A DNA stretch of 30,553 nucleotides from Acidobacteriota bacterium (GTDB taxonomy: Bacteria > Acidobacteriota > Thermoanaerobaculia > Thermoanaerobaculales > Sulfomarinibacteraceae), in NCBI GenBank assembly GCA_030637805.1, contig DAOWFV010000136.1, positions 1-30,553 on the forward strand. Reading direction: 5' to 3'. A model generated the notes under the pieces. The model was not told the DNA's origin. It worked only from the letters and a program-made list of their open reading frames with translations, and did no database searches. The position numbers were made by a program, and so were the translations under genes. This document shows positions 1,654 to 26,554 of this stretch, piece by piece (within the stretch, counting starts at the first letter, position 1; each line of letters starts with the position of its first letter).

Positions 1654-3344
1654 CGGGCGGCCTCCGGCTTCAGCGGTAGGACGGCGATCGGGAACTCGTC
1701 GTCGACGTCGGGCCAGCGGTGAATCTCGCCCTCGACCTTGATCGACCAGACGATCTTGTTGTGCAACGCGGCGAAGCTGTGCATGGTGTCCTCGGGGAGG
1801 AAGACCTCGGCGACCCCCTTGCCGATCTCCCAATAGTTGACGGTGTCGATCAGGCCGAGGGTGGCGAAGACCTCGGTATCGGTGTGGGTGTCTGTGCCGC
1901 GTTGGTACGTCGCCTCCTCCTTCCCTTCGATGACGATGGTGAGGTGGTTGATCCGCGAGCTTCTGCCCGTGAACCGCCACTCGACCCGCAGGTCGTCACC
2001 GAGGCGGGGTTGCGCGGGAAGAAGCACCAAGTTCGGCCGTGGGTTGGCGAGGGCGAGCGCAAAGTAGAAGATGCCCACGGCGAGGCCCAAACCTACCAGG
2101 ACGAACGGCACCGTGAATATCGTCAGAAACCAGTCAGGTCGCCCGCTCTGCCATCCTTTGATGACCTGCCACACTAACACGCTGACAATTCCGTTCCAGA
2201 CGAGGGCGACCAGGACGATGCCGAAGAACTTGGCGGCCGGGGAGGTCGAAGATTCCAGCTCGACCGATTCGCCCCCGCTGGGCTCGGCGATCACCGCCGG
2301 ATCCGCTGATCTTCGATTCTTACGGGCCACCTTGCGGCTGTGCGCCACCAGCGCTCCGCCGGCGAGGACGAAGATCAGCGGCAGCAGACCGAGAAGGTAG
2401 GTCGGCCGGAAACTCCGGTCGAGGACGGCTCGAGTGGGATCCTCGGGATCGACCCAGCACCTTCCTTCGGTCCCTGGAGGGTATTGATCGACGACTTCCT
2501 TCTTGCCGGCATACCCGCTCGAGCTGACGTCGAGGAAGCCATAGCGGTTGCTGCGCCAGGTGCGGCCCGAGTACTCGTACTCATAGAGGATGTCGATTTT
2601 GTAGGTGGTGCCGTCGTCGGAGGTGTGGGAGCGAACGGTTGAGGAGATCACGGTGCATGGAACCTCGGGCCAGGAGATTGCGCGCACGAGCCGGATCATG
2701 GGCAGCATGAAGACCGCGACGAACACGACAACGCCGACGACAACGAAGACGAGGCCCATTACCAGAAGCACCCGATGGCCCCCTTGTCCCCGGGCCCCCT
2801 GTGAGATCGAGACAGTCTCCTGATCCGCCTGCGCCCGGCCCGGACGCCAAATCACGAACAGCCCACCGCCGCCGATGACGACGAAGACGAGCGGAAGAAG
2901 GACCATCAACGCCGTCCACGGCACCGACCGCTCGAGCACGGCCCGCGACGGGTCGGCCGGATCGACGTAACACGTCGTTTCACTGTCCTGCTCGTAGCGC
3001 AGTGCGCGGCGTTGAGCCTTGCCGAAGTCGCTCTCGGTGTTCGCCCTGCGGGACACCCGGTCGCCGAGGTGCTCCTGACCGTCGACCGCGTATCGGTATC
3101 GCACCGAGGCCTCGAAGGGTTGTTCATCGTCACCGCTGTCCACGACCTCGCTCGACACGATCGTGCACGGGGTGGGGTCCCAACGCCAGGTCGCGACGTC
3201 GCGCACAGTCTCACCGATGAGCATGACGAGGAAAAACAACCCCATTCCGAGGAACAGCCCGAAGAAAACTGAACCGACGAGCTTGCCGAAGACAGACCGG
3301 CAGCCGGTTCCCTCGCTGTCACCGGACGAGATAGAAATTCGCAC
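1650..3344 (-). CDS. Membrane protein with two DUF3592-like repeats and a C-terminal soluble beta domain
   Basis: Internal duplication: W..tPCTivSSeV...Y.Y and CYVDPADPSRAVLERS versus CWVDPEDPTRAVLDRS, each flanked by hydrophobic helices. GTG start is uncertain. Confidence 0.8.
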   Translation of the reverse strand: MRISISSGDSEGTGCRSVFGKLVGSVFFGLFLGMGLFFLVMLIGETVRDVATWRWDPTPCTIVSSEVVDSGDDEQPFEASVRYRYAVDGQEHLGDRVSRRANTESDFGKAQRRALRYEQDSETTCYVDPADPSRAVLERSVPWTALMVLLPLVFVVIGGGGLFVIWRPGRAQADQETVSISQGARGQGGHRVLLVMGLVFVVVGVVVFVAVFMLPMIRLVRAISWPEVPCTVISSTVRSHTSDDGTTYKIDILYEYEYSGRTWRSNRYGFLDVSSSGYAGKKEVVDQYPPGTEGRCWVDPEDPTRAVLDRSFRPTYLLGLLPLIFVLAGGALVAHSRKVARKNRRSADPAVIAEPSGGESVELESSTSPAAKFFGIVLVALVWNGIVSVLVWQVIKGWQSGRPDWFLTIFTVPFVLVGLGLAVGIFYFALALANPRPNLVLLPAQPRLGDDLRVEWRFTGRSSRINHLTIVIEGKEEATYQRGTDTHTDTEVFATLGLIDTVNYWEIGKGVAEVFLPEDTMHSFAALHNKIVWSIKVEGEIHRWPDVDDEFPIAVLPLKPEAAR

Positions 3345-3379
3345 GGTCGACGTCCCGGTTCGATTCTACCCCGAGAGCC

Positions 3380-3466
3380 GAATTCTCAATTCTCAATTCC
3401 AACCCACCCACAAATGTGCGTGGGGCACCTGATCATTGAGAATTAAGAACTGAGAATTGAGAATTC
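3380..3466. repeat. Heptamer-armed palindrome, family 1 (TTCTCAA arms)
   Basis: GAATTCTCAATTCTCAATTC ... TTGAGAATTAAGAACTGAGAATTGAGAATTC, with inner hairpin CCCACCCAC-AAAT-GTGCGTGGG. Confidence 0.9.
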
Positions 3467-3540
3467 TATTCAGCTGGTTTTTGCCAGGCCGTTTGAGGGT
3501 TTTTGCCGTGGTGTTGTAGGGAAGGCGCTGGACCTTCCGA

Positions 3541-3912
3541 TTATCCTTCGTCGGCGTGCTCTACGCCCGTGCCCATGAGATCGGCCACGTGCTGGTCTAC
3601 CAGGCTGTAATAGACCATTCGGCCATCACGGCGGGCCCGAACCAGGTCGCGGTCGCGGAGCAGGCGGAGCTGGTGGCTGACGGCGGAAACCGACAGCTCG
3701 GCGAGCACGGCAAGATCACAGACGCAGAGTTCTTTCGTAACCGTCAGCGCGTGCAGGATCTTGAGCCGAGTGGGATCGGACAGCGCTGAGAAGAGTCTGC
3801 TCAGCCGTTCGATGGTGTGGACCGGCAGCGCACGCTTCTGGACGAAGGCGACGGCCTCGGGATCAATCTCGTTGATCGTACAAGTTTCGTAGGTGGACTC
3901 GTTCTCATTCAT
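3541..3912 (-). CDS. ArsR/SmtB-family metal-responsive transcriptional repressor
   Basis: LSDPTRLKIL, ELCVCDLA, SAVSHQLRLLR, RRDGRMVYY; C-terminal DQHx10HADE; GGAG upstream of the ATG. Confidence 0.93.
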   Translation of the reverse strand: MNENESTYETCTINEIDPEAVAFVQKRALPVHTIERLSRLFSALSDPTRLKILHALTVTKELCVCDLAVLAELSVSAVSHQLRLLRDRDLVRARRDGRMVYYSLVDQHVADLMGTGVEHADEG

Positions 3913-3988
3913 GGGCGCATTCTCCCAGAATCCCGCTCCCCGGTCAATCAGGACACCTGGGTGGGGGATTCACGATGTTTAATTAGCG

Positions 3989-4384
3989 TCAGCCCTTCAC
4001 GGCCTTGTGACCATAGAAAATCAATCCCGCCTCGCCATCCCAAGCCACCCGCCGGAACTCGAGCCTGACGGGCATGCCGATCTCCAGCTCCTCGGGGTCG
4101 GCGAGATCGCCGACCTGCATCATCACCTTGACGCCGTTCGTAAGCTCCACCAGGGCGATCGGTAGTGGGGACTGCTCGGTGTATCCAGCCGGGGGCACGC
4201 GGACCACCGTAAAGGTCACCACCTTTCCCTCGCGAGGGAGGGGGGTGGTCTCGAAGGTGCATCCCCCGCAGTCGGGACACACCACGCGAGGCGGGTAGAG
4301 AACCTTCTCGCACCCCTCGCAACGGGCGGCTTCGAGACGGTACCGTTGCGGAAACTCGCGCCAGGATCGCGCCGGAGAAATCAT
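3989..4384 (-). CDS. DUF35-family Zn-ribbon/OB-fold protein (thiolase/HMG-CoA synthase scaffold)
   Basis: CEGC-x10-CPDC zinc ribbon followed by an OB-fold (GKVVTFTVV...IALVEL...GMPVRLEFR); ATG at 4384 overlaps the thiolase stop (ATGA). Confidence 0.92.
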
Positions 4385-5544
4385 GACGCCACCTCCAGGA
4401 TGTGCACGGTGGAGCTGCCGCCGGAACCGCCCATGTTCTGGGCCAGGCCGATTGTGGCTCCCTCCACCTGTCGCTGACCCGCCTCGCCCCAAAGCTGGGT
4501 CGCGATTTCGGCCACCTGCGCCACGCCGGTGGCCCCCACCGGGTGGCCCTTGGATTTGAGGCCGCCGGATGGGTTCACCGGAATCTTGCCGTGCAGCGAG
4601 GTGAGGCCCTTATCCACCGCCGACGCGCCGAATCCCGGATCGAAGAGCCCGATTGCCTCGGTGGTCATTATCTCGGCGATGGTGAAGCAGTCATGGACCT
4701 CGACCACGTGCAGTTCCTCGGGCTTCCTCCCGGCCATGGCGTAGGCTCTTTCGGCGGCCAGACGCACTCCATCGAGCTGCGAGAGGTCGTTGCGATTGGC
4801 GAGAGCCATGGTGTCGGTGGCGAGGCCAGAGCCGGTGATCTTCACCATCGGCCGCTCGCTCCCGAGCTCGCGCGCCCGTTCCACGGTCGTGATGACCAGA
4901 GCGGCTGCGCCGTCGGTGACCGGAGAGCAGTCGAGCAGGTGCAACGGGTCGGCGACCATCGTGGAGGCAAGCACGTCTTCGACGCTTACCTTGAGGTGGT
5001 ACTGGGCGTGTGGGTTGAGCAGGCCGTTGGCGTGGTTCTTGACCGCAACCGCGGCAAGCTGCTCCGAGGTCGTGCCGTGACGCTGCATGTGTACTTGCGC
5101 CAACATCGCGTACAGACCGGGGAAGGTGATGCCGTGGAAACCTTCCCACTCCTGATCGGCGGCGGTGCCCAGGGCGAAAGTGGCATCGGCGCCGTCTACG
5201 TCCGTCATCTTCTCGACGCCGGTGACTAGCACCGTGTCGGAGAGCCCGCCTGCGACCTCGGCGAAAGCCATGCGCAGGGCGAGACCGCCGGACGCACAGG
5301 CTGACTCGACCCGCGCGGCCGGGACTCCGGCCATACCGAGCTCGTCGGCGAGCAGCGAGGCGAGGTGCTCCTGGCCGGCGAAGAGGCCCGGAGACATGCA
5401 CCCGATGGTCACCATATCCACCGAATCAACGCCGGCGTCGGTCAGGGCGGCGAGGGCCGCCTCGGCCCACATGGTGCGCAGGGATTTTTCCCAGAGCTCG
5501 CCGAAATCGATCATTCCAATGCCTACGACAGCGACATCTCGCAT
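4381..5544 (-). CDS. Thiolase, archaeal/SCP2-like type (acetyl-CoA acetyltransferase)
   Basis: VESACASGG (catalytic Cys), [17 protein letters not shown], and AQNMGG in place of the classical CxG; ATG at 5544 with GAGGGG upstream. Confidence 0.93.
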
Positions 5545-5555
5545 TGCCACCCCCC

Positions 5556-6614
5556 TCACTCGGCCATGCGGATCTTGCCGCGGAGCTTGGCGTATGTACC
5601 GTAGTCCACGTAGATCTGGTTCTCGTCGAGTTGCTCGCGGGTCTTGGCGGCCCGGTCCCGAGCTACCTCAATCCGTTCCTTGACGCGAAAGACAAAGGAG
5701 TCAGAACCCGCTCCGGAGCCGAAGGACGTGAGCAGTACGAGATCCTCTGGCTGGGCGATGTCGAGAACCGCCGTGAAGCCGATGGGTGAGGCTCCGGAGT
5801 AGGTGTTACCGAGCCACGGCGACAGCCAGCCGGTCTCCAGCTGCTCCTGGGTGAAACCCAGTTTCTTGCCGACACGCATCGGGAACTTGCCGTTGGGCTG
5901 GTGGAAGATGGCGTGGGCGAATTCGCCGGGTTCGAGACCGGCCTTTTCCATGATGCCGCGAGCCGAGCTCATGGTGGTCCGGAAGTATGCCGGCTCGCCG
6001 GTGAACCGGCTGCCGTGACGCGGGTAGTGCATGTACTCGCGGCGCCAGAAGTCGGGGGTGTCGGTGGTCCAGGAGTAGGTGTCCACAACCTCGGCCAGGA
6101 TACGATCCTCGTCGTTGCCGAAGATGAAGGCCGCTGCGCCGGCCGCCGCCGAGTACTCGAGGGCATCCCCGGGGGCGCCCTGCGAGGTGTCGGCGCCGAT
6201 ACCCACCGCGTACTTGACCTCGCCCGCCTTGACCAATGCCTGGGCGAGGAAGAGGCCCTCCGTGCCGGCCTTACAGGCGAACTCCAGGTCGGCGATGTGC
6301 AACGCCGGCGTCGCACCGATGGCCTCGGCGACGATGGTGCCCGACGGCTTCACCGCGTACGGGTGTGACTCGGAGCCGACGTAGAGAGCGCCGATCTCCT
6401 CCGGGTCCACACCGCCGGAGCGGGCGAGGGCGTTTCGGGTTGCCTCGACCGACATCGTGACCGTGTCCTCATCCGCCCCGGGGACCGATTTTTCGTGGAG
6501 CTGCAGCCCTTTGCGGTAGGACGGCGCGTCCGCTCCCCAGACCTTGGCAATTTCTTCGAGCTTGATGCGGCGTCTTGGAATGAAGGCGCCGTAGCCGACA
6601 ATGCCTACGCTCAT
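5556..6614 (-). CDS. Hydroxymethylglutaryl-CoA synthase, archaeal type
   Basis: [22 protein letters not shown] (catalytic Glu), EFACKAGT (catalytic Cys), [13 protein letters not shown] (catalytic His), [15 protein letters not shown]; 352 aa; GGAGG RBS. Confidence 0.93.
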
Positions 6615-6670
6615 GGGTCCTCCAGGTGTTGAGATCGGGTCGCCTGTCGCGATATTCGCGCAGCCGAATA

Positions 6671-6699
6671 AGTCTACACAGGCGGAATAATAGTGTAAA
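6671..6699 (-). promoter_or_regulatory. Sigma70-type promoter for the HMG-CoA synthase operon
   Basis: Minus strand TTTACA-N17-TAGACT, 57 nt upstream of the HMGS start codon. Confidence 0.6.
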
Positions 6700-6716: not shown

Positions 6717-6886
6717 TCAGGTCTCAGGTCTCAGGTCACAGGTCTCAGGTCACAGGTTACAGGTCGCACTGAAATTTCGATTGAATTCCTGCAATGTCAA
6801 CTGTTCTATTCCCTTTCTATACCTCTCATTCGTGACCTCCGCGCTTGCAAAAACCTGAAGCCTGAGACCTGTGACTTGCGACTTGC
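6717..6886 (-). repeat. Family 2 element (TCAGGTC arms, conserved core), reverse orientation
   Basis: About seven TCAGGTC/ACAGGTC units at 6717-6766 and inverted CCTGAAG-CCTGAGA-CCTGTGA-CTTGCGA at 6853-6886. The reverse-strand core TTGACATTGCAGGAATTCAATCGA...GTGCGAC matches the copies at 15025 and 26480. Confidence 0.85.
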
Positions 6887-6929: not shown

Positions 6930-8240
6930 ATGAACCAGCGCGACATGAGGGGTGGTAACTACGCGGCGGAGCTGCAGTCTCCGGAAACCTATCGAGATCG
7001 CCGTCGACGGCTCGCGGAGCGAGTGGGCTCGGGCACTGTGGTGCTGTGGGGGGCGGGAGATGACCGGGGTTATGGAGACGTCGGTACCTTTCGACAGGGT
7101 TCGAGTTTCTTCTACCTCACGGGTGTCGAGCTCCCGAACGCAGTCGCGGTGCTACGCCCCGAGGAAGGAGGGGATCTCCTTTTCCTGCCGCCGCGCAACC
7201 CCAACATAGAGCGTTGGACGGGGCCAAAGTGGGGGCCGGGAGAGGAGGCGGCAGCTGCCTTCGGTTTCGACGAGGTGCTGTCTACGGAGGCAACGGAGAC
7301 TGTGATTGATGCGCGCCGGCGGCCGGTGCCGGGACTCGAGGGGCGGCTCCATGGGTGGTTGGCCGAGCCCGGCGCCGTTCTGTGGACCGAGCTCCCGGCC
7401 GTTTCCAGCGGCGCCGAGCTTCCCCCAACACACCGTTTCGTGGCGAAGCTGCGCGACCGGCTGCCGACCTTTGAGGTTCGCGATCTGGGCGAGCACCTGA
7501 CCGCCCTCCGTCTAGTCAAGGATGATGGGGAGATCGGACTCATGAGGAGGGCGATGGCTGCCACGATCGAGGGTCACCGTCGGGCCGCTCGGTCCGTGTC
7601 GCCGGGGGTCAGCGAGGGGGCGGTCGACGGAGCGGTCTACGCGGCCTTTCGAGAGTCCGGTGCGGAGGGTCTTTCCTTCCCCACTATCGTCGGTTCGGGC
7701 TACAACGCCACGACCCTCCACTACGATCAGAACGCCGGAACCTGCCGTGACGGTGAGCTGGTGGTGGTGGATATCGGGGCGCGCTACGGCTACTACTGCG
7801 GAGATCTGACCCGGAGCTATCCTGTGAACGGCCGTTTTTCGAAGCGTCAGCGCGAGATTTACGAGCTCGTGCTCGAGGCGCATGACCGCGCGGCAGAGGC
7901 CATCCGACCCGGCATCACGATGTCCGAGTTGCGTAAGATCGCGTTCGGCGTGATCGAGGGTTCGGACCTTCGCGATACGGAGGGCGAGCCGCTAGGGCAG
8001 TACTTCATCCATGGACTCGGCCACTTTCTCGGGCTCGACGCTCACGACCCGGGCGGTGACGAGGTAGTCCTTGAACCGGGGATGGTCATTACCAACGAGC
8101 CCGGCATCTACCTTCCCGAAGAGGAGCTTGGGGTACGCATCGAGAATGATTTCGTGGTCACCGCCGACGGCGGCGAAAACCTCTCCGCTGAGCTGCCGAC
8201 GAGCATCAGTGACGTGGAAGAGATGATGCGCCAGGAGTGA
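6930..8240 (+). CDS. pepP: Xaa-Pro aminopeptidase (M24B)
   Basis: FFYLTG..P N-domain; VDIGARYGYYCGDLTR, HGLGHFLGLDAHD, EPGIY and GVRIENDFVVT metal-binding motifs; GGAGG before ATG 6930 and TAGAAT at 6902. Confidence 0.9.
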   Translation: MNQRDMRGGNYAAELQSPETYRDRRRRLAERVGSGTVVLWGAGDDRGYGDVGTFRQGSSFFYLTGVELPNAVAVLRPEEGGDLLFLPPRNPNIERWTGPKWGPGEEAAAAFGFDEVLSTEATETVIDARRRPVPGLEGRLHGWLAEPGAVLWTELPAVSSGAELPPTHRFVAKLRDRLPTFEVRDLGEHLTALRLVKDDGEIGLMRRAMAATIEGHRRAARSVSPGVSEGAVDGAVYAAFRESGAEGLSFPTIVGSGYNATTLHYDQNAGTCRDGELVVVDIGARYGYYCGDLTRSYPVNGRFSKRQREIYELVLEAHDRAAEAIRPGITMSELRKIAFGVIEGSDLRDTEGEPLGQYFIHGLGHFLGLDAHDPGGDEVVLEPGMVITNEPGIYLPEEELGVRIENDFVVTADGGENLSAELPTSISDVEEMMRQE

Positions 8241-8255
8241 AGCGCAGACCAGAGC

Positions 8256-8580
8256 ATTAGGAATTCGGAATTCGGAATTAGGAATTAACGGCGCGGGGAG
8301 GCGACCGAGTGGCTCAAAGTGTTGTGCCCGCGCTGGGGCACTCTCGGGGCGCGCTCCGGCAGAAGGTCGCGACACCTTTCAGAAGCGCAAATCCGTAGCT
8401 TTGGAACACGCGACGATCTGGAGTACTCGTACCCTCCGGGCGCCAGTACCCCGCCGACGGTAGCGGTTTGTTGCCGCACCCGGCGAAATTGAGAATTGAG
8501 AATTGAGAATTGCAGATCGAGCTATCTCCGATTTGGGCAAGCGTCCTTAACTCAAAACTCAAAACTAAGAACTCAAAACT
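8256..8580 (+). repeat. Family 3 composite element (TTCGGAA/TTAGGAA left arm, conserved GC-rich core, AACTCAA right arm) plus an internal AATTGAG array
   Basis: Arrays at 8256-8287, 8487-8512 and 8549-8580. Core 8289-8347 is 49/59 identical to the reverse complement of 13766-13824. Confidence 0.85.
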
Positions 8581-8637: not shown

Positions 8638-11600
8638 ATGAATGGGCCTTCGGTCGGCAGCTCGCAGTTGAGATCGTGGTGTCTTGCCCTTGCGGCGGTC
8701 GTCGTGTGCGGACCCTGGCCTGGCTGGGACCCCGCGCCGGTGGCCGTGCTCGGCCTCTGTGGCGGACTTCTTTTTCTCGCACGCCCGCGCGGCCGGGGCT
8801 GGTTGCCGTGGGTGGCGGTGGGTGTCTCGGTCGTGGTGTTCGTGTGGCCAGCCGCCGATGACGCCCTTCCCGAGGAGCTGTCGGCCCAGCTCGACGGCCA
8901 CTGCCGCGAGATGCTGGACGCGGCCGAGGAGATCGCGGCCAATCCGGTCGTGCTGCGTCTGCTCGGCGCCGCGGGGGAGGCCGTGGATCCCGCTCAGCCG
9001 TTTAGGGTCCTCGAGCGCGGCTCGCGAGGGGCCGCGGGCCGCACAACCTACCTCGCCGATGATCGCGGACAGGTCGTTGCGTGGGGTGGCGCCGAACGCG
9101 CCCTTCCATTCGGTGTCCGTCCTCTCGGTCAACGCCAGTGGGGGGTCGCCTGGTCTGCGGGAAGCGCCGATCTCTGGCTGCGGGAGCCGGTTTTGGTCGA
9201 GGGTCGGATGGTGGGAACGGTCATCGTCTCCGATCACGGCTCCCTGGCTGCTATCCGGGTGTGGGGGATGACGGCGTCGCGAGGCTCTACCCTTCACCTC
9301 GGTCTCAACCATCCCGGTACAGCAGTGGTGCGCGCCGCGAGCAGCCCGGGTGTGGAGGTTCCGGTCTCGAGCGCGGCAGTTGCTACCGAGTCAGGTTTCA
9401 ACGCGTGCTGGCTTGGATGGATGTTGCTGGCGGTCGCCGCGCTGATCTGGGAGCCAAGGATGGCATGGGCTGTGGTGATTTTGGGCTGGGGAGCGCTGGT
9501 GGCTGCTCCGGGGCCCCCCAGTGAGGCCGCGCTGGTCGTCGCGGTGTTGATGGCCGGAGCCGCGGGTGGGCGGCTGGGGACGGTTCTCGGTCCTCTCTGG
9601 GCGCGGGCCCTTGTTGTAACCGGCCTCGTGGGGGCCTCGTTGATGGCGGTCCTGGGCTTCCCGGCGGAGCGATTCGGGTGGCTGCCGGAGCACCTGTTGC
9701 GTCCGGGTTGGGGTGGCGCCTGGATGGTGGCTCTGGTCTGGTTGGTGGTGGCCTGGCCGGGTGTTTCACGAACGAGGTTTCCGCTCGCCCGCCGGCTGCA
9801 AGTGGCGTCCCTTCTGGCCCTCCTGGGCCTCGGCCTGCACCTGGCCCGCGTTCCGGTGGAGCTCGAACGCAGAGGGCGCGAAGGTCGCGGCGTCGTGCTT
9901 CCGCGCGGCGATCTCCAGCTGGAAGCGCGCCTGCCTGCGCCGCCGGAAAGCTGTCGCCTCGGAGATTTGGCGCCGGTTCTGGCGGCACAATGGGGGCTCC
10001 CCGGCTGGCGGACCCCCGCCGAGCTGGTCCTGGTCGGTGAGGACGGCGCCGAGATCTCCCGGTGGGGTGACCTTTCGCCGGCGGGAGATCGCATCCGCGT
10101 CGCACGGTGGTGGAACCTGGAGGGTGGCGCGGGACCCCAGTTGGAGCTCCTGGTGGCCACCGAACCCTGGAGTTGGCTCGGCGATTGGCGCACCGGGGTC
10201 ACCTTGGAGGAGGCCAGCAGCAGCCGGGTTTGGTTTGCCGTCCTGACGCGTTCGGGAGATGTCGCTGCCAGCCTTCATCCGGAGTTTCGCGGCCTCGACG
10301 CGATCACGGCCGGTGAGCTCTTTCACAACGGCGGTGGGTGGACCCGCCTCGAGGTGGGGGAGGACCGGAGGCTGGCCAGGGTGTGGCGGAGGGAGCAGTG
10401 GCTGGTGGCGGCGGTGGCCCCCCACACCTCTCGGTCGGATTGGGTCGTACGCACTGCGATCGCGGCGCTCTGGGCTTTTTTCGGTACCCTCCTCGCCCTC
10501 CCGCCGGTTCTGAGACGACAACATGTGTCGACCTTCGGTGGCCGGTTGCGACTGCTCGTTGCGGGTGGGGTCGTTCTGCCGTTGGCGATCCTGACGCTGT
10601 TCCTGCACCAGCGCATCGGCGGCCAGGAGCTCCGCCTGGAGCAGGCCCGCGGGCTCGAGGCCTTGAAGGCTGCGCGGTACACGATGATCAACCTGGGAGG
10701 GGCCTTCGCGGTGGACGATGAGCTTGCGCGTTGGCTCGCCTCGGGATGGGGCGGTGAAGTGGCTTTGTGGGATGGGATCGTGCCAGTGGCCACGTCGCGC
10801 CCCGACCTAGTGAGCATCGGGGCTCTGCCGCAGCTTCCCGCGGCTGCCGCCTACCCCTCGTTCCTCCTCGGCAGGGACGATCCCATGGTTCTCCGCTGGC
10901 GGGATCGGGTGGTGGCCACAGGTCCGGTCGATCTGCAAGGCAATCGTCTCTTACTCCACCTTTACCGCTCCGACCCGATTCGCACCGGATCGAACCTCGG
11001 GGCCGTCGATTGGCTACTTACCGGCGCCCTCCTTTCCGCCCTCCTCGCTCTGGCCCTTACGACCGGGGTCGAACGGAGATTGAGCGCCTCCCTGCGCGAG
11101 CTGGTCGCGTTGGCCCGAAAGCTCCTCGACGGTGAGCCCGTCGGTCCGTTTCCACAGCCCAAAGAGACCGATCTCGCTGAAGTACTCGATGCGGTTCGAT
11201 CGATGAACGAGGAAGTTCATCAGCGTGAGCTCAGCCTTCGCCATCAGGAGGAGCTACTCCGCATTACCCTCTCCACCCTGGCGCCGGCGGTGGTGGTGCT
11301 CGAGCCAGACGGGGGGGTTCGTTTTGCAAACCCGAGTGCCCGACGGCTCGAGGACGAGTACGACGATCTCTTTCTCGAGCGGGTACGTGTGGTCGCCGGT
11401 CGGGATTGGGCCGGGGACACAGTGTCCGAGACGGTTCAGCCCGTAGCTGGTAGTGACCTGACATGGAGGATCGGCGTGGCTGGAGTCCCCTTCCCCGACG
11501 GCAGTCGTGGCTTGGTGGCGGTGGTGGATGACGTCACCGATCTCGTGCGGGCGGATCGAATGCAGCAGCTCAACCAAATGGCGCGGATTGTGGCCCACGA

Positions 11601-12240
11601 GGTGAAAAACCCCTTGACGCCGATTCGCCTTTGGACCGAAGAGCTGGAGGCGGCGCGGCGCCGCAACGATCCCGAATTGGGTTCCCTCCTGGAGGAGGCA
11701 TGTCGGGAGATCTCGGTGCAGGTGGAACGCCTGCAGGGGACGGCGAACTCGTTTTCAAACCTGGTGGCGCTGGAGGTTTGGACGCCCGAACCGGTGGATC
11801 TGGTGCGACTTCTCGAGGAGGTCCCCAGCGGTTCGGAGATTCTCGAACGGCGCGGCGTGCGAATCGTGCGCGAGGTGACCTCCCCCGCACCTCCGCCTGT
11901 TACAGGCGACCGGCAGTGGTTGAGTCGCGCTTTAGCAAACCTCGTCCAGAACAGCATAGACGCTCTGGGAGGCGAGCCCGGAGAAGTGTTCCTACGACTC
12001 GCTTCTGAGGGTGACCGCGTGGTGCTCGAGGTCGAGGATACAGGAGGCGGCGTGCCCGATCATCGTCTCCCCGATCTCTTTTCTCCGCAGTTCTCGACAA
12101 CCACTGCGGGGAGTGGCCTCGGTCTCGCCCTGGTCCATCAGGTGGTGGCGCGATGCCATGGTCGGGTCGCAGCTGTCAACGGGGAGCGGGGGCTGCTCGT
12201 TCGGCTCGAGTTCCCGTCATCCATCCCTCTGGTACGATAA
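8638..12240 (+). CDS. Large multi-pass membrane sensor histidine kinase (NtrY-like C-terminus)
   Basis: 1200 aa; many hydrophobic segments, a HAMP-like and a PAS-like region, H-box AHEVKNPLTPI, N-box NLVQNS, EDTGGG, FSTTTAGSGLGL. TATACT 7 nt before the ATG supports this start. Confidence 0.88.
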   Translation: MNGPSVGSSQLRSWCLALAAVVVCGPWPGWDPAPVAVLGLCGGLLFLARPRGRGWLPWVAVGVSVVVFVWPAADDALPEELSAQLDGHCREMLDAAEEIAANPVVLRLLGAAGEAVDPAQPFRVLERGSRGAAGRTTYLADDRGQVVAWGGAERALPFGVRPLGQRQWGVAWSAGSADLWLREPVLVEGRMVGTVIVSDHGSLAAIRVWGMTASRGSTLHLGLNHPGTAVVRAASSPGVEVPVSSAAVATESGFNACWLGWMLLAVAALIWEPRMAWAVVILGWGALVAAPGPPSEAALVVAVLMAGAAGGRLGTVLGPLWARALVVTGLVGASLMAVLGFPAERFGWLPEHLLRPGWGGAWMVALVWLVVAWPGVSRTRFPLARRLQVASLLALLGLGLHLARVPVELERRGREGRGVVLPRGDLQLEARLPAPPESCRLGDLAPVLAAQWGLPGWRTPAELVLVGEDGAEISRWGDLSPAGDRIRVARWWNLEGGAGPQLELLVATEPWSWLGDWRTGVTLEEASSSRVWFAVLTRSGDVAASLHPEFRGLDAITAGELFHNGGGWTRLEVGEDRRLARVWRREQWLVAAVAPHTSRSDWVVRTAIAALWAFFGTLLALPPVLRRQHVSTFGGRLRLLVAGGVVLPLAILTLFLHQRIGGQELRLEQARGLEALKAARYTMINLGGAFAVDDELARWLASGWGGEVALWDGIVPVATSRPDLVSIGALPQLPAAAAYPSFLLGRDDPMVLRWRDRVVATGPVDLQGNRLLLHLYRSDPIRTGSNLGAVDWLLTGALLSALLALALTTGVERRLSASLRELVALARKLLDGEPVGPFPQPKETDLAEVLDAVRSMNEEVHQRELSLRHQEELLRITLSTLAPAVVVLEPDGGVRFANPSARRLEDEYDDLFLERVRVVAGRDWAGDTVSETVQPVAGSDLTWRIGVAGVPFPDGSRGLVAVVDDVTDLVRADRMQQLNQMARIVAHEVKNPLTPIRLWTEELEAARRRNDPELGSLLEEACREISVQVERLQGTANSFSNLVALEVWTPEPVDLVRLLEEVPSGSEILERRGVRIVREVTSPAPPPVTGDRQWLSRALANLVQNSIDALGGEPGEVFLRLASEGDRVVLEVEDTGGGVPDHRLPDLFSPQFSTTTAGSGLGLALVHQVVARCHGRVAAVNGERGLLVRLEFPSSIPLVR

Positions 12241-14876: not shown

Positions 14877-14925
14877 GGCACGAGAGTATAACGCGCGACG
14901 CCGGACGATTCACGAGGTGCCTGTG

Positions 14926-15123
14926 TCAGGTCTCAGGTCTCAGGTCTCAGGTCACAGGTCTCAGGCTACACAGGCTTCAGGTATCAGGTCTCATTGAAAA
15001 ATTCATGAAAGTTGCAGAAAAGGCTTGATATCGCAGGAGTACAACCGATGATTCGGTTGCGACTTGCGATGTGCGCCCTGAGACCTGAGACCTGCATCCC
15101 AATTCCGAATTCCGAATTCTCAA
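14926..15123 (+). repeat. Family 2 element with an abutting AATTCCG array
   Basis: TCAGGTC-type units at 14926-14993. Segment 15015-15099 is 74/85 identical to 26470-26554 and includes the inverted CCTGAGA units. AATTCCG-AATTCCG-AATTCTC follows at 15101-15121. Confidence 0.9.
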
Positions 15124-19070: not shown

Positions 19071-19146
19071 TGGAGCGGGCAACGGGACTCGAACCCGCGA
19101 CATTCAGCTTGGGAAGCTGACACTCTACCAGCTGAGTTATGCCCGC
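19071..19146 (-). tRNA. tRNA-Gly (anticodon CCC)
   Basis: Reverse strand GCGGGCA-TA-ACTC..GGTAGAGT-G-TCAGC-TTCCCAA-GCTGA...GCGGGTTCGAGTCCCGT-TGCCCGC-T-CCA; 76-nt cloverleaf, U73 discriminator, encoded CCA. Confidence 0.97.
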
Positions 19147-19777: not shown

Positions 19778-20971
19778 TCAGATGGAATAGAGCACCTCGC
19801 CGCTGCCGATTCCGCCGCCCACGCAGCGGCTGGTGACACCGACCCGCTTTCCACGCCGGCGCAGCTGGTGAACCATGTCGACGACCTGACGCGCTGCGGT
19901 GCAACCCACCGGGTGGCCGAGGGAGATCCCGCTGCCCCAGAGATTGGTTCTGTCCCGAGGCAGGTCCGGTAGGTCGTGAAAGGCTGCGGCCAGAACGGCC
20001 GCAAAAGCCTCGTTGAGCTCGAAGAGATCGACCTCTCCGATGCCGAGGCCGGCGCGCTCGAGCAGGGGAGGAATGACCTTGAAGGCGCCTTCGCCCATGT
20101 ACTCGCGCTCCACCCCGACGTTGTAAAACGCATTGAGCTCGGCGAGCGGGTGTAGACCCAGCTCGGCGGCCCGTTCCTCACTGGTCAGCACGACTGCCGC
20201 TGCGGCGTCGTTGACGCTCGAAGCGTTGAGAGCGGTGATGGTACCGCCGTCTCGTTTGAAGTACGGTCGGGCTGCCGCGAGCTCTTCCATGGTTAACGGT
20301 CGCGGCCCCTCGTCACGTTCCACGATCTGTGGATCCCCGCGCCGTTGGGGAACCTCCACGGGCACAACGTAGTCGCCGAAGGCCCCCTCCTCCCATGCCT
20401 TCAACGCGCCGTGATGGCTGCGGAAGGCGATCTCGTCCTGCTCCTCGCGGGTGAGGCCGTATCGGTCGACCAACCGCTCGCTGAGCAGACCCATGAGCTC
20501 GCCGTCACCGACGTTTGCGTCTGTCAGCGCACCAAAGAGCCCGTCGACCAGGGTCATGTCGCCATAGAGCTGGCCCTTGGTCCGTCCGGTGAACAGGAAC
20601 CTGGGCACGTTGCTGAGAGACTCGACGCCGCCGGCGATTCCCAACGACACCTCGCCGAGCATGATGCGGCGGGCGAGACTGTGGATCGCCGCGCCGCCCG
20701 AGGCGCAGTTCTCGTGGAAGGTGGTGCCGGGAGAGCTGCTCGGGACCCCCGCGAACTCAGCCGCAGTCTTGGCGAGGTTGGGTGAGCGCGGGTCCTGCAT
20801 CACCCAGCCCATGCAGGTGTACTCGACCAGCATGGGATCGAGGTCCGTGGACTCGAGCAACGCTCGAATGATGATGGTGGCCAGCTCGCGCGCCCGGAGT
20901 GGGGCGAGACCTCCTCCCAGGGCGCCGATCGGGGTCCTTACCGCTCCGGCGATGACGACCTTCGTAGTCAT
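19778..20971 (-). CDS. Acetyl-CoA C-acyltransferase, classical thiolase
   Basis: AVRTPIG, NCASGG (Cys), GGVESLS, NEAFA, GHPVG, RCVGGG (second Cys); AAGGAGG RBS before ATG 20971. Confidence 0.93.
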   Translation of the reverse strand: MTTKVVIAGAVRTPIGALGGGLAPLRARELATIIIRALLESTDLDPMLVEYTCMGWVMQDPRSPNLAKTAAEFAGVPSSSPGTTFHENCASGGAAIHSLARRIMLGEVSLGIAGGVESLSNVPRFLFTGRTKGQLYGDMTLVDGLFGALTDANVGDGELMGLLSERLVDRYGLTREEQDEIAFRSHHGALKAWEEGAFGDYVVPVEVPQRRGDPQIVERDEGPRPLTMEELAAARPYFKRDGGTITALNASSVNDAAAAVVLTSEERAAELGLHPLAELNAFYNVGVEREYMGEGAFKVIPPLLERAGLGIGEVDLFELNEAFAAVLAAAFHDLPDLPRDRTNLWGSGISLGHPVGCTAARQVVDMVHQLRRRGKRVGVTSRCVGGGIGSGEVLYSI

Positions 20972-21048
20972 GTGATACCTCCTTCTCGCTTCAGGAATCG
21001 TACGCCCGACCTCACGCCGCGTCCAATTCAATGCGCGAGATCTACGGG

Positions 21049-22197
21049 TCAGGGCTTCGGCGGCTGGGCCAACGAAAGGACGAGGTCGGTGAAGAGGGCG
21101 AGTCGTGGCGGAAGGCAATCGATGACAATGGATTCGTCGGGTTGGTGGGCGCCTTCTCCCACCGGCCCAAGGCCGTCGATGGTCGGGGCCCCCACGGCCG
21201 CGGCGAGGTTAGCGTCCGACGAACCGCCCCAGCGCACCCAGCCGAGGTCGAGGCCGAGGCCCTTGCCGATCTCCCGTGCGCGGTCGAAGAGCTCGAGGGT
21301 GGCTGGTGAGGCCTCCATCGGTGGCCGGTTCCAGCCGCCGGAGAGGTGGATCTCGCTGCCGGCAAGCGTTGGTTGCAGTGCATGAAGAGCGGTGGTCAGT
21401 CGCTCGGTTTCGTGCTCGGTCCATGCCCGCACATCGACCCGAATCTCAGCCCGATCAGGGACCATGTTGCTTGCGGATCCGCCCGTGATGACGTTTGGAC
21501 CCACGGTGGTTCCGAGGGCGGGATCTTCGAGTCCGAGGATAGCCAGAATCTGGTGTGCGGCCTCGACCACAGCGTTGATCCCGCGCTCCGGTTCGACCCC
21601 CTGATGGGTGGCGCGGCCTCGGATGTCGACGATGAACTCGCCGGAGCCCTTGCGCGCCAGCTTCAGACTGCCCTCGAGATTCGTCGGTTCGAGGACGAGG
21701 ACGAAGTCTGAACGCCGCGCCGCTTCCTCGATGAACCGGCGCGACCCTGGCGCCCCGACCTCTTCATCAGGGGTGAGCAGCATCTCGAGATGGGGGTGGG
21801 AGTGACCCGATGCGTCGAGATAGCGCAGCAGCCACGGAATGAAAAGCAGGCCGCCCTTCATGTCGTAGACCCCGGGGCCGTACGCTCGTCCACCCTCGAC
21901 CCGCCACAGACTCGGCCACGATCCGATCGGCCAGATCGTGTCGTAGTGAGCGAGGATCAGGATCCTGGCGCCGTTGCCGCTGCGAGTGAGGCGCAACACC
22001 GGACCATGCTGCTGCAGGTTTTCGCGCTCGAGACGACCCAACGAGGCCAGGCGATCGGCGAGGAATTCGGCCGCTTCCTGCAGATTCGTCAGATTCCCGG
22101 AAGGGGTCTCGATGGCGGTCAGAGCCTGCAACTCGACCAGGTAATCCTGCAGGTGGCCGGCGAAGAAGTCGAGACTCTCCATGAGCCGGGCGATCAC
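21049..22197 (-). CDS. M20-family metallopeptidase (glutamate carboxypeptidase-like)
   Basis: LAHYDT, GPGVYDMKGG, PDEEVG, LVLEP, GGSSDAN, DGLGP.GEGAH; AAGGAG 7 nt before GTG 22197 (ATG 22182 is an alternative). Confidence 0.92.
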   Translation of the reverse strand: MIARLMESLDFFAGHLQDYLVELQALTAIETPSGNLTNLQEAAEFLADRLASLGRLERENLQQHGPVLRLTRSGNGARILILAHYDTIWPIGSWPSLWRVEGGRAYGPGVYDMKGGLLFIPWLLRYLDASGHSHPHLEMLLTPDEEVGAPGSRRFIEEAARRSDFVLVLEPTNLEGSLKLARKGSGEFIVDIRGRATHQGVEPERGINAVVEAAHQILAILGLEDPALGTTVGPNVITGGSASNMVPDRAEIRVDVRAWTEHETERLTTALHALQPTLAGSEIHLSGGWNRPPMEASPATLELFDRAREIGKGLGLDLGWVRWGGSSDANLAAAVGAPTIDGLGPVGEGAHQPDESIVIDCLPPRLALFTDLVLSLAQPPKP

Positions 22198-26381: not shown

Positions 26382-26554
26382 TCAGGTCTCAGGGATCAAG
26401 TCACAGGTCTCAGGCTTCAGGTCTCAGGCTTCAGGTCTCAGGCTTCAGGGTTCAGGTAGCAAAAAGATCCAGAAAAAACTTGACATCGCAGGAGCCCAAC
26501 CGACGATTCTGGTGCGACTTGCGATGTGCGACCTGCGACCTGAAACCTGCATCC
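26382..26554 (+). repeat. Family 2 element
   Basis: About ten TCAGGTC/TCAGGCT-type units at 26382-26457, core TTGACATCGCAGGAGCCCAACCGA, then inverted CTTGCGA/CCTGCGA/CCTGAAA units. Confidence 0.9.

Follow-up and report, generated by a model that had tools for sequence, protein, structure and literature searches.

How does an archaeal-type gene set for making 3-hydroxy-3-methylglutaryl coenzyme A (HMG-CoA) come to lie in a bacterial chromosome, and what does it do there? The question is raised by a 30,553-nucleotide stretch of DNA from an Acidobacteriota bacterium of the family Sulfomarinibacteraceae (contig DAOWFV010000136.1, positions 1 to 30,553; hereafter the window), which is contig C2 of a metagenome-assembled genome (MAG; G000, 1.93 Mb, 264 contigs, 65% complete). 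The open reading frame (ORF) listing and translations place on its minus strand three co-oriented genes, in the order HMG-CoA synthase (HMGS), acetoacetyl-CoA thiolase and DUF35 protein (hereafter the trio). A preliminary description, made from the sequence alone, had taken the trio for an old archaea-to-bacteria transfer that supplies HMG-CoA for mevalonate isoprenoids or another fate. From the gene structure, family membership, catalytic residues and genome distribution of the trio, and from its co-occurrence with HMG-CoA reductase (HMGR) and with genes of the methylerythritol phosphate (MEP) pathway, we find that it is inherited vertically within a broad bacterial clade, with no recent archaeal import, and that in this family it probably feeds a bacterial-type mevalonate route encoded elsewhere in the genome.

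Judged by profile scores and conserved residues, the trio genuinely belongs to the thiolase/HMGS/DUF35 family and has its catalytic motifs intact. The HMGS scored 511.8 bits against TIGR00748 (cut-off 353.35) and 512.7 bits against NF003274 (cut-off 244), and failed the bacterial mvaS model (97.9 bits; cut-off 360). The thiolase passed the SCP-x-type subfamily model NF004720 (498.3 bits; cut-off 420) and fell below the Methanothermococcus-type equivalog NF053570 (497.6 bits; cut-off 600), which lessens the case for strict equivalog status and for nothing else. The DUF35 protein has a zinc ribbon (PF12172, 36.1 bits) and an OB fold (PF01796, 66.6 bits). We numbered the HMGS residues by alignment to chain I of 6ESQ, the Methanothermococcus thermolithotrophicus complex, and to PMC12960953; the tetrad is complete (E82, C114, H238 and N270), and FHQPN was also found. 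Likewise, the thiolase has complete C83-A-S85, H284-D-C-F287 (HDCF) and G332-H333-P motifs together with NMGG, and the DUF35 protein keeps all four zinc-ribbon cysteines (C22, C25, C36 and C39). Thus, all the HMGS and thiolase motifs named in the preliminary description were found.

We considered that the trio might instead be a Friedel-Crafts C-acyltransferase for a secondary metabolite, since PhlACB of Pseudomonas and MucABC of Streptococcus, which catalyse C-acylation, are homologous and share its three-protein architecture. The E-C-H-N tetrad of HMGS and the CxS, HDxF and GHx motifs of the thiolase separate HMG-CoA-forming complexes from the acyltransferase derivatives, and the PhlACB/MucABC group has lost the tetrad and, of the thiolase motifs, HDxF (PMC12960953). 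In contrast, the window proteins retain both. Moreover, 6ESQ was the top PDB match for the HMGS (chain I, 449.6 bits) and the DUF35 protein (chain E, 100.2 bits) and a close second for the thiolase (chain A, 352 bits, after 366.5 bits for 7YVY, another archaeal-type acetyl-CoA acetyltransferase), whereas PhlA, PhlC and PhlB scored 186-192, 88-92 and 66-69 bits, respectively, and the newer Streptococcus complex also scored far under 6ESQ. No biosynthetic cluster was seen around the trio in the window. An acyltransferase is thus scarcely credible here, and the motifs and PDB scores bear out the earlier placing of the trio with the archaeal channelling complex rather than with PhlACB.

The idea of a transfer from archaea into this lineage had some initial appeal: the family model for the HMGS (TIGR00748) is archaeal, and its best solved relative, from the methanogen Methanothermococcus, is about 58% identical (identities counted in the printed alignment). 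However, a scan of species-representative genomes, with a 10-sequence HMGS alignment as the query, gave at least 599 matching stretches, and the best 80 of these were all bacterial, with HMGS proteins 58-90% identical to that of the window and labels from 17 phyla (Acidobacteriota, Ignavibacteriota, Planctomycetota, Gemmatimonadota, Zixibacteria, Eisenbacteria, Aminicenantes, WOR-3, Stahlbacteria, Cloacimonadota, Calditrichota, Chlorobiota and others). The trio gene order was kept in 70 of these 80 loci, most of the remainder ending at contig edges. Thus, the naming of PhlACB as the bacterial homologue of the trio was incomplete, as at least 599 such stretches lie in bacterial species representatives and the 80 that we looked at have all the trio genes intact. 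The closest database proteins are all from Acidobacteriota (Thermoanaerobaculales, Thermoanaerobaculia or Sulfomarinibacteraceae).

Within the host lineage the trio is widespread. We surveyed 81 genomes of the order (Thermoanaerobaculales-like Acidobacteriota), comprising 80 that are at least 85% complete plus the host assembly, with 48 from the host family and 32 from its sister family. The trio was present in 67 of the 81 (45/48 in the host family; 21/32 in the sister family), and archaeal-type HMGS was found in 21 of the 24 genomes of the same genus; the other three are 66-89% complete. The HMGS-thiolase-DUF35 order was kept in all 10 relatives checked. In two relatives, an apparent HMGS-thiolase-DUF35 fusion (frames of 880-886 aa) resolved into separate frames, the GC-rich extension over a divergent AtuA gene being spurious. 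In one near-complete same-genus genome (G014:C6:20010-21054) the HMGS is broken into two frames, covering model positions 2-209 and 211-345, which is a frameshift or an assembly error.

HMGS trees (FastTree, 166 rows; IQ-TREE with C20 PMSF, a quick run, 103 rows) placed the window and the named bacterial rows in one clade (SH-aLRT 85, or 94 with one further representative); these trees contain no named euryarchaeal sequence, and the 6ESQ sequence is not among their rows. Inside this clade the window was joined first by Thermoanaerobaculia (SH-aLRT 98) and next by other Acidobacteriota and two Planctomycetota (97). Phylum labels required 28 changes on the tree, compared to 41.5 when shuffled and a minimum of 16, which indicates descent that was partly vertical and partly by exchange among bacteria. 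The nameable representatives outside the bacterial clade were DPANN and Lokiarchaeota, with a separate Thermodesulfobacteriota group also outside, and the sister group of the clade resembles Chloroflexota sequences (Atlas features). Many representatives (P0128, P0131, P0134, P0138, P0145 and others; about 480-506 aa) are DUF35-HMGS fusions, with about 140-160 extra N-terminal residues before the HMGS domain; one cluster of these is Lokiarchaeota.

Because the gene order is kept in 10/10 relatives, the trees group the window with Thermoanaerobaculia and the base composition is host-like (operon GC 0.65-0.66; whole genome 0.65), as the preliminary description had observed, we conclude that the trio descends vertically within the bacterial clade. 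A recent or lineage-specific archaeal island in the chromosome is effectively refuted, and we give it only the slightest probability: the proteins branch inside a bacterial clade of at least 17 phyla, an outcome that the preliminary description had itself named as refuting its reading, and the trio is general in the order. The Methanothermococcus HMGS itself scored higher against the window protein (449.6 bits) than against three representatives from outside the clade (430.7, 371 and 319.9 bits), and its identity to the window protein is at the level of the remoter bacterial members, from which we suggest that Methanococcales-type HMGS probably lies close to, or even within, the bacterial clade. 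At the root of this clade there may have been an old link between the domains, in either direction.

We then asked what the trio would supply. No HMGR lies within the window, as had been noted before, but one is present on another contig of the host assembly, C99, which carries a diphosphomevalonate decarboxylase (MDD; TIGR01240, 269.8 bits, cut-off 171), a GHMP kinase resembling phosphomevalonate kinase (PMK) and a class II HMGR (2859-3980; PF00368, 372 bits; TIGR00532, 421.9 bits). This HMGR is in one frame with an N-terminal mevalonate kinase (MVK) part (71.6 bits) that is cut by the contig end (L014:2754-4475). In a near-complete genome of the same genus (G001) the cluster reads MDD, PMK-like kinase, HMGR::MVK fusion and isopentenyl diphosphate isomerase (IDI) type 1; the fusion is 760 aa long (L029:3897-6176) with a full-length MVK (253.7 bits; cut-off 163), the MDD was identified by tblastn only (74% identical to that on C99), and IDI type 1 was seen only in this genome. 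Across the order, open frames of about 750-950 aa are common among the HMGR matches, consistent with an HMGR::MVK fusion; frames of this length also recur in Zixibacteria, Planctomycetota and another MAG. A literature search found no paper on a natural HMGR-MVK fusion or on mevalonate genes of Thermoanaerobaculia. The host assembly also has a second MDD and PMK-like pair on contig C128 (L015:258-2311; 77% and 61% protein identity to the C99 pair); the two clusters are paralogous unless the bin (contamination 2.3%) includes another population.

In the host assembly and four same-genus genomes (90-96% complete), we found no HMGS of the mvaS type (TIGR01835); the best match to this model in each of the five was the trio HMGS itself (65.5-99.7 bits; cut-off 360). 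Thus, the trio HMGS is the only recognisable HMGS in these genomes and, to judge from its sequence, stands in for the mvaS type. Since genes for HMGR, MVK (as an N-terminal piece), a PMK-like kinase and MDD lie on another contig of this assembly and no other HMGS was found in the genus, a role of the trio in mevalonate supply is plausible.

The state of the MEP pathway in the order fits this role. In the survey, dxs was found in none of the 48 host-family genomes, compared to 28 of 32 in the sister family; ispH was present in 22/48 (4/14 in the window's genus) compared to 32/32, and ispG in 29/48 (10/14 in the window's genus) compared to 31/32. HMGR and ispH each occurred in 54 of the 81 genomes, and all 26 surveyed genomes of the order that lack ispH carry both the trio and HMGR; these 26 are kin from seven genera, and we report a pattern, with no statistic attached. 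Trio and HMGR occur together in 40 of the 48 host-family genomes. Similarly, among trio carriers of other phyla, HMGR was present in 3 of 5 without ispH but in only 3 of 45 with it. Both dxr and ispF occur in all five genus genomes checked, and genomes that lack DXS while keeping later MEP genes suggest a source of 1-deoxy-D-xylulose 5-phosphate that is as yet unrecognised. In one sister-family genus, 4/4 genomes (each about 2.4 Mb) are without DXS, the trio and HMGR and retain ispG and ispH.

We therefore consider it rather probable, from these gene contents, that the trio provides HMG-CoA for a mevalonate route of bacterial type, in a family from which DXS has gone and the late MEP steps are disappearing. 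In the proposed mechanism, the thiolase would condense two molecules of acetyl-CoA to acetoacetyl-CoA, and the zinc-ribbon/OB protein would hold the HMGS next to the thiolase, so that the HMGS could add a third acetyl-CoA to give HMG-CoA and thereby pull the unfavourable first condensation forward. The HMG-CoA would then feed the route encoded on C99, with HMGR::MVK, PMK-like kinase and MDD, and IDI type 1 as in the same-genus genome. Complex formation, HMG-CoA production and flux into isoprenoids are what we infer from the genes.

Several observations weigh against such a role. The PMK-like kinase scored under all curated cut-offs (95 bits compared to 166). The host assembly keeps dxr (468 bits), ispF (189 bits) and ispG (346 bits); neither dxs nor ispH turned up in this 65% complete assembly, and at that completeness the absence of ispH from the host genome itself is not established. 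The search for MEP genes that the preliminary description had proposed thus gave a mixed result. No isoprenoid or mevalonate gene lies near the trio in the window or within 4 kb of it in the 80 loci of other phyla. Of 50 trio carriers from other phyla, 44 are without HMGR and 45 have ispH, and 20 genomes of the host order, including 12 of 15 in one sister-family genus, have the trio and ispH without HMGR. Most carriers are without HMGR; therefore, mevalonate supply cannot be the general role of this module, and the earlier suggestion of such a supply stands as plausible for the host family but does not extend to most carriers elsewhere.

What else the trio might do is suggested by its neighbours. 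In the same-genus genome G001 the trio is followed directly by biotin carboxylase, carboxyltransferase, biotin carboxyl carrier protein and acyl-CoA dehydrogenase genes, which is the gene set of methylcrotonyl-CoA carboxylase plus isovaleryl-CoA dehydrogenase; this neighbourhood points to branched-chain acyl-CoA metabolism and also counts against the mevalonate role. In the other-phyla loci, a same-strand carboxyltransferase gene stands immediately 3' of the trio in 26/80, an enoyl-CoA hydratase gene follows it in 17/80, and an AtuA gene adjoins it in 12/80, as well as in two HMGR-less genomes of the host order. These AtuA-family genes (PF07287, acyclic terpene utilisation), as at L026 (G034; 6945-8396, divergent) and at L027 (G027), lie beside the trio in genomes that are without HMGR. 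Thus, the trio might mainly serve leucine- or isovalerate-type metabolism rather than isoprenoid synthesis, although both roles are compatible in one cell.

Such a role could take two forms. HMG-CoA could, by analogy with the alternative isovaleryl-CoA biosynthesis (AIB) route, be dehydrated and decarboxylated towards isovaleryl-CoA for iso-fatty-acid starters (PMC5389471). Alternatively, the complex could run in reverse and turn leucine-derived HMG-CoA into three acetyl-CoA, replacing HMG-CoA lyase, for which we found no gene in the host assembly or in the four same-genus genomes. The HMGS reaction is generally taken as strongly favourable in the synthetic direction, which counts against a reversed complex. 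The frequent absence of HMGR from trio carriers, both in other phyla and in the host order, fits either form. In contrast, no carboxyltransferase, hydratase or acyl-CoA dehydrogenase gene was found beside the trio in the window; there, and in the closest relative (L031; HMGS 90% identical), no carboxylase genes follow, and a DUF3592 gene follows the trio in both, an ArsR gene being seen only in the window. Orthologues of the G001 carboxylase genes, the dehydrogenase excepted, were not found in the assembled part of the host genome; a carboxyltransferase on contig C26, considered as a possible leucine-type operon, stands alone and is uninformative. Moreover, the co-occurrence of the trio with HMGR in most of the host family speaks against a mainly leucine-type role, which we regard as the less likely reading for this family, though a rival to be taken seriously.

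Supply of the mevalonate route remains our preferred reading for the host family. We also offer, as a tentative possibility, a history of the module. The trio may be a widespread bacterial acetyl-CoA/HMG-CoA module, originally linked to branched-chain acyl-CoA metabolism, which one acidobacterial family recruited to serve as the upper half of its mevalonate pathway after the arrival of an HMGR::MVK, PMK, MDD and IDI cluster, with DXS then lost, and IspG and IspH lost in several genera. In that case, successive stages in which the mevalonate pathway displaces the MEP pathway would be found next to one another within this order.

The organization of the genes in the window is given in Table 1. 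The earlier claim of a tightly coupled operon was confirmed: the HMGS TGA is followed by 11 nt (ggggggtggca) and the thiolase ATG at 5544, and the thiolase stop and the DUF35 start share a 4-nt ATGA overlap (4384..4381). A longer thiolase ORF in the list, starting at GTG-5559, is unnecessary. GGAGG lies at 6623..6619, five bases ahead of the HMGS ATG (6614). The sigma70-like promoter claimed for the operon was recovered as a match to the consensus, and as that alone; five such matches were observed in the region, compared to 0.6 expected. No terminator-like site was seen 3' of the DUF35 gene; the next gene downstream, for an ArsR-family regulator, has a separate promoter-like site before it. 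A DUF3592 gene also lies downstream, and a divergent M24 peptidase gene lies upstream.

Table 1. Coordinates of the trio and of other features in the window
Feature	Position	Strand	Basis or remark
HMG-CoA synthase, archaeal-type, 352 aa (P0001)	5556..6614	-	TIGR00748, 6ESQ chain I, tetrad residues
SCP-x/archaeal-type acetoacetyl-CoA thiolase, 387 aa (P0002)	4381..5544	-	NF004720, 7YVY, 6ESQ chain A, motifs
DUF35 scaffold protein, 131 aa (P0003)	3989..4384	-	PF12172 and PF01796, 6ESQ chain E
Sigma70-like promoter match, TTTACA-17 nt-TAGACT, 5' of HMGS gene	6671..6699	-	consensus match only, 9/12
ArsR-family regulator	3912..3541
1200-aa ORF	8638-12240	+	histidine-kinase domains at C-terminal end
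tRNA-Gly(CCC)	19071-19146
Conventional bacterial thiolase	19778-21118	-	Thiolase_N and Thiolase_C
Heptad array, site 1	6717-6765	+	inverted partial copy 6853-6869 (-)
Heptad array, site 2	14922-14966	+	inverted partial copy 15076-15092 (-)
Heptad array, site 3	26406-26436	+	inverted partial copy 26531-26547 (-)

Elsewhere in the window, the amidase and tRNA-Gly genes mentioned in the preliminary description are both present, as Amidase_3 and tRNA-Gly(CCC). The tRNA gene lies beside a conventional bacterial thiolase gene, so that acetoacetyl-CoA could also come from a second enzyme of this genome. The heptad TCAGGTC (GGTCTCA/GGTCACA) is repeated in arrays of about seven copies in three intergenic regions, and an inverted partial copy lies some 90-130 bp from each array (15 matches compared to 0.01 expected); the arrays look like a dispersed repeat element, and one of them lies between the promoter-like site of the trio and the divergent M24 peptidase gene. 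The 1200-aa ORF has its histidine-kinase domains confined to the C-terminal end, and its long N-terminal part has no Pfam match. The stretch 9001-11000 shows strong AT skew (-0.35 and -0.23) at a GC of 0.68-0.70.

These results correct a common assumption, namely that an archaeal-type trio in a bacterium is a sign of inter-domain transfer or of a mevalonate pathway. For annotation, the trio alone is not evidence of mevalonate synthesis. The trio is common across bacterial phyla, and this locus is of modest interest for its mosaic pathway and for the gradation of MEP and mevalonate states within one order. Some trio carriers of the host order have MEP genes alone, some have both routes and some have the mevalonate route alone; the order is thus a natural system in which to study both isoprenoid pathway switching and the role of the trio where HMGR is missing.

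Compared to known systems, the trio is closest to the thiolase/HMGS/DUF35 complex of M. thermolithotrophicus, which was reported in 2018, as cited in PMC12960953. The same three proteins are present, and the tetrad, the thiolase motifs, and the Cys4 ribbon and OB fold are kept; the differences are that the host is a bacterium and that the complex and its channelling are here predicted from the genes. The trio operons of other phyla (Ignavibacteriota, Planctomycetota, Gemmatimonadota, Zixibacteria, Aminicenantes and others) belong to the same clade and have the same gene order. Those operons are mostly found without HMGR and with ispH, and in many of them genes for a carboxyltransferase, a hydratase or AtuA adjoin the trio, whereas the window operon stands alone in an HMGR-bearing genome. 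In the AIB route of Myxococcus xanthus (MvaS, LiuC, AibA/B and AibC), HMG-CoA derived from acetyl-CoA is diverted to isovaleryl-CoA (PMC5389471), which is a possible second fate of HMG-CoA here; that route relies on an mvaS-type HMGS together with a CoA-transferase-like decarboxylase, genes for which are not seen on either side of the window trio.

The partners of the trio also differ from those of the archaeal lower pathway, being of bacterial type (class II HMGR fused to MVK, PMK-like kinase, MDD and IDI type 1). According to the main text of Hoshino and Gaucher (2018; PMC6107057), which makes no mention of Acidobacteria, archaeal-type acetoacetyl-CoA thiolase and HMGS occur among the bacterial mevalonate genes of Chloroflexota and of the candidate phyla radiation (CPR). 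The Chloroflexota described there have the archaeal lower route through MPD and IPK, in contrast to the MDD and PMK-like kinase found here. The CPR bacteria described in the same text combine archaeal-type with bacterial-type mevalonate enzymes, just as this acidobacterial genome does.

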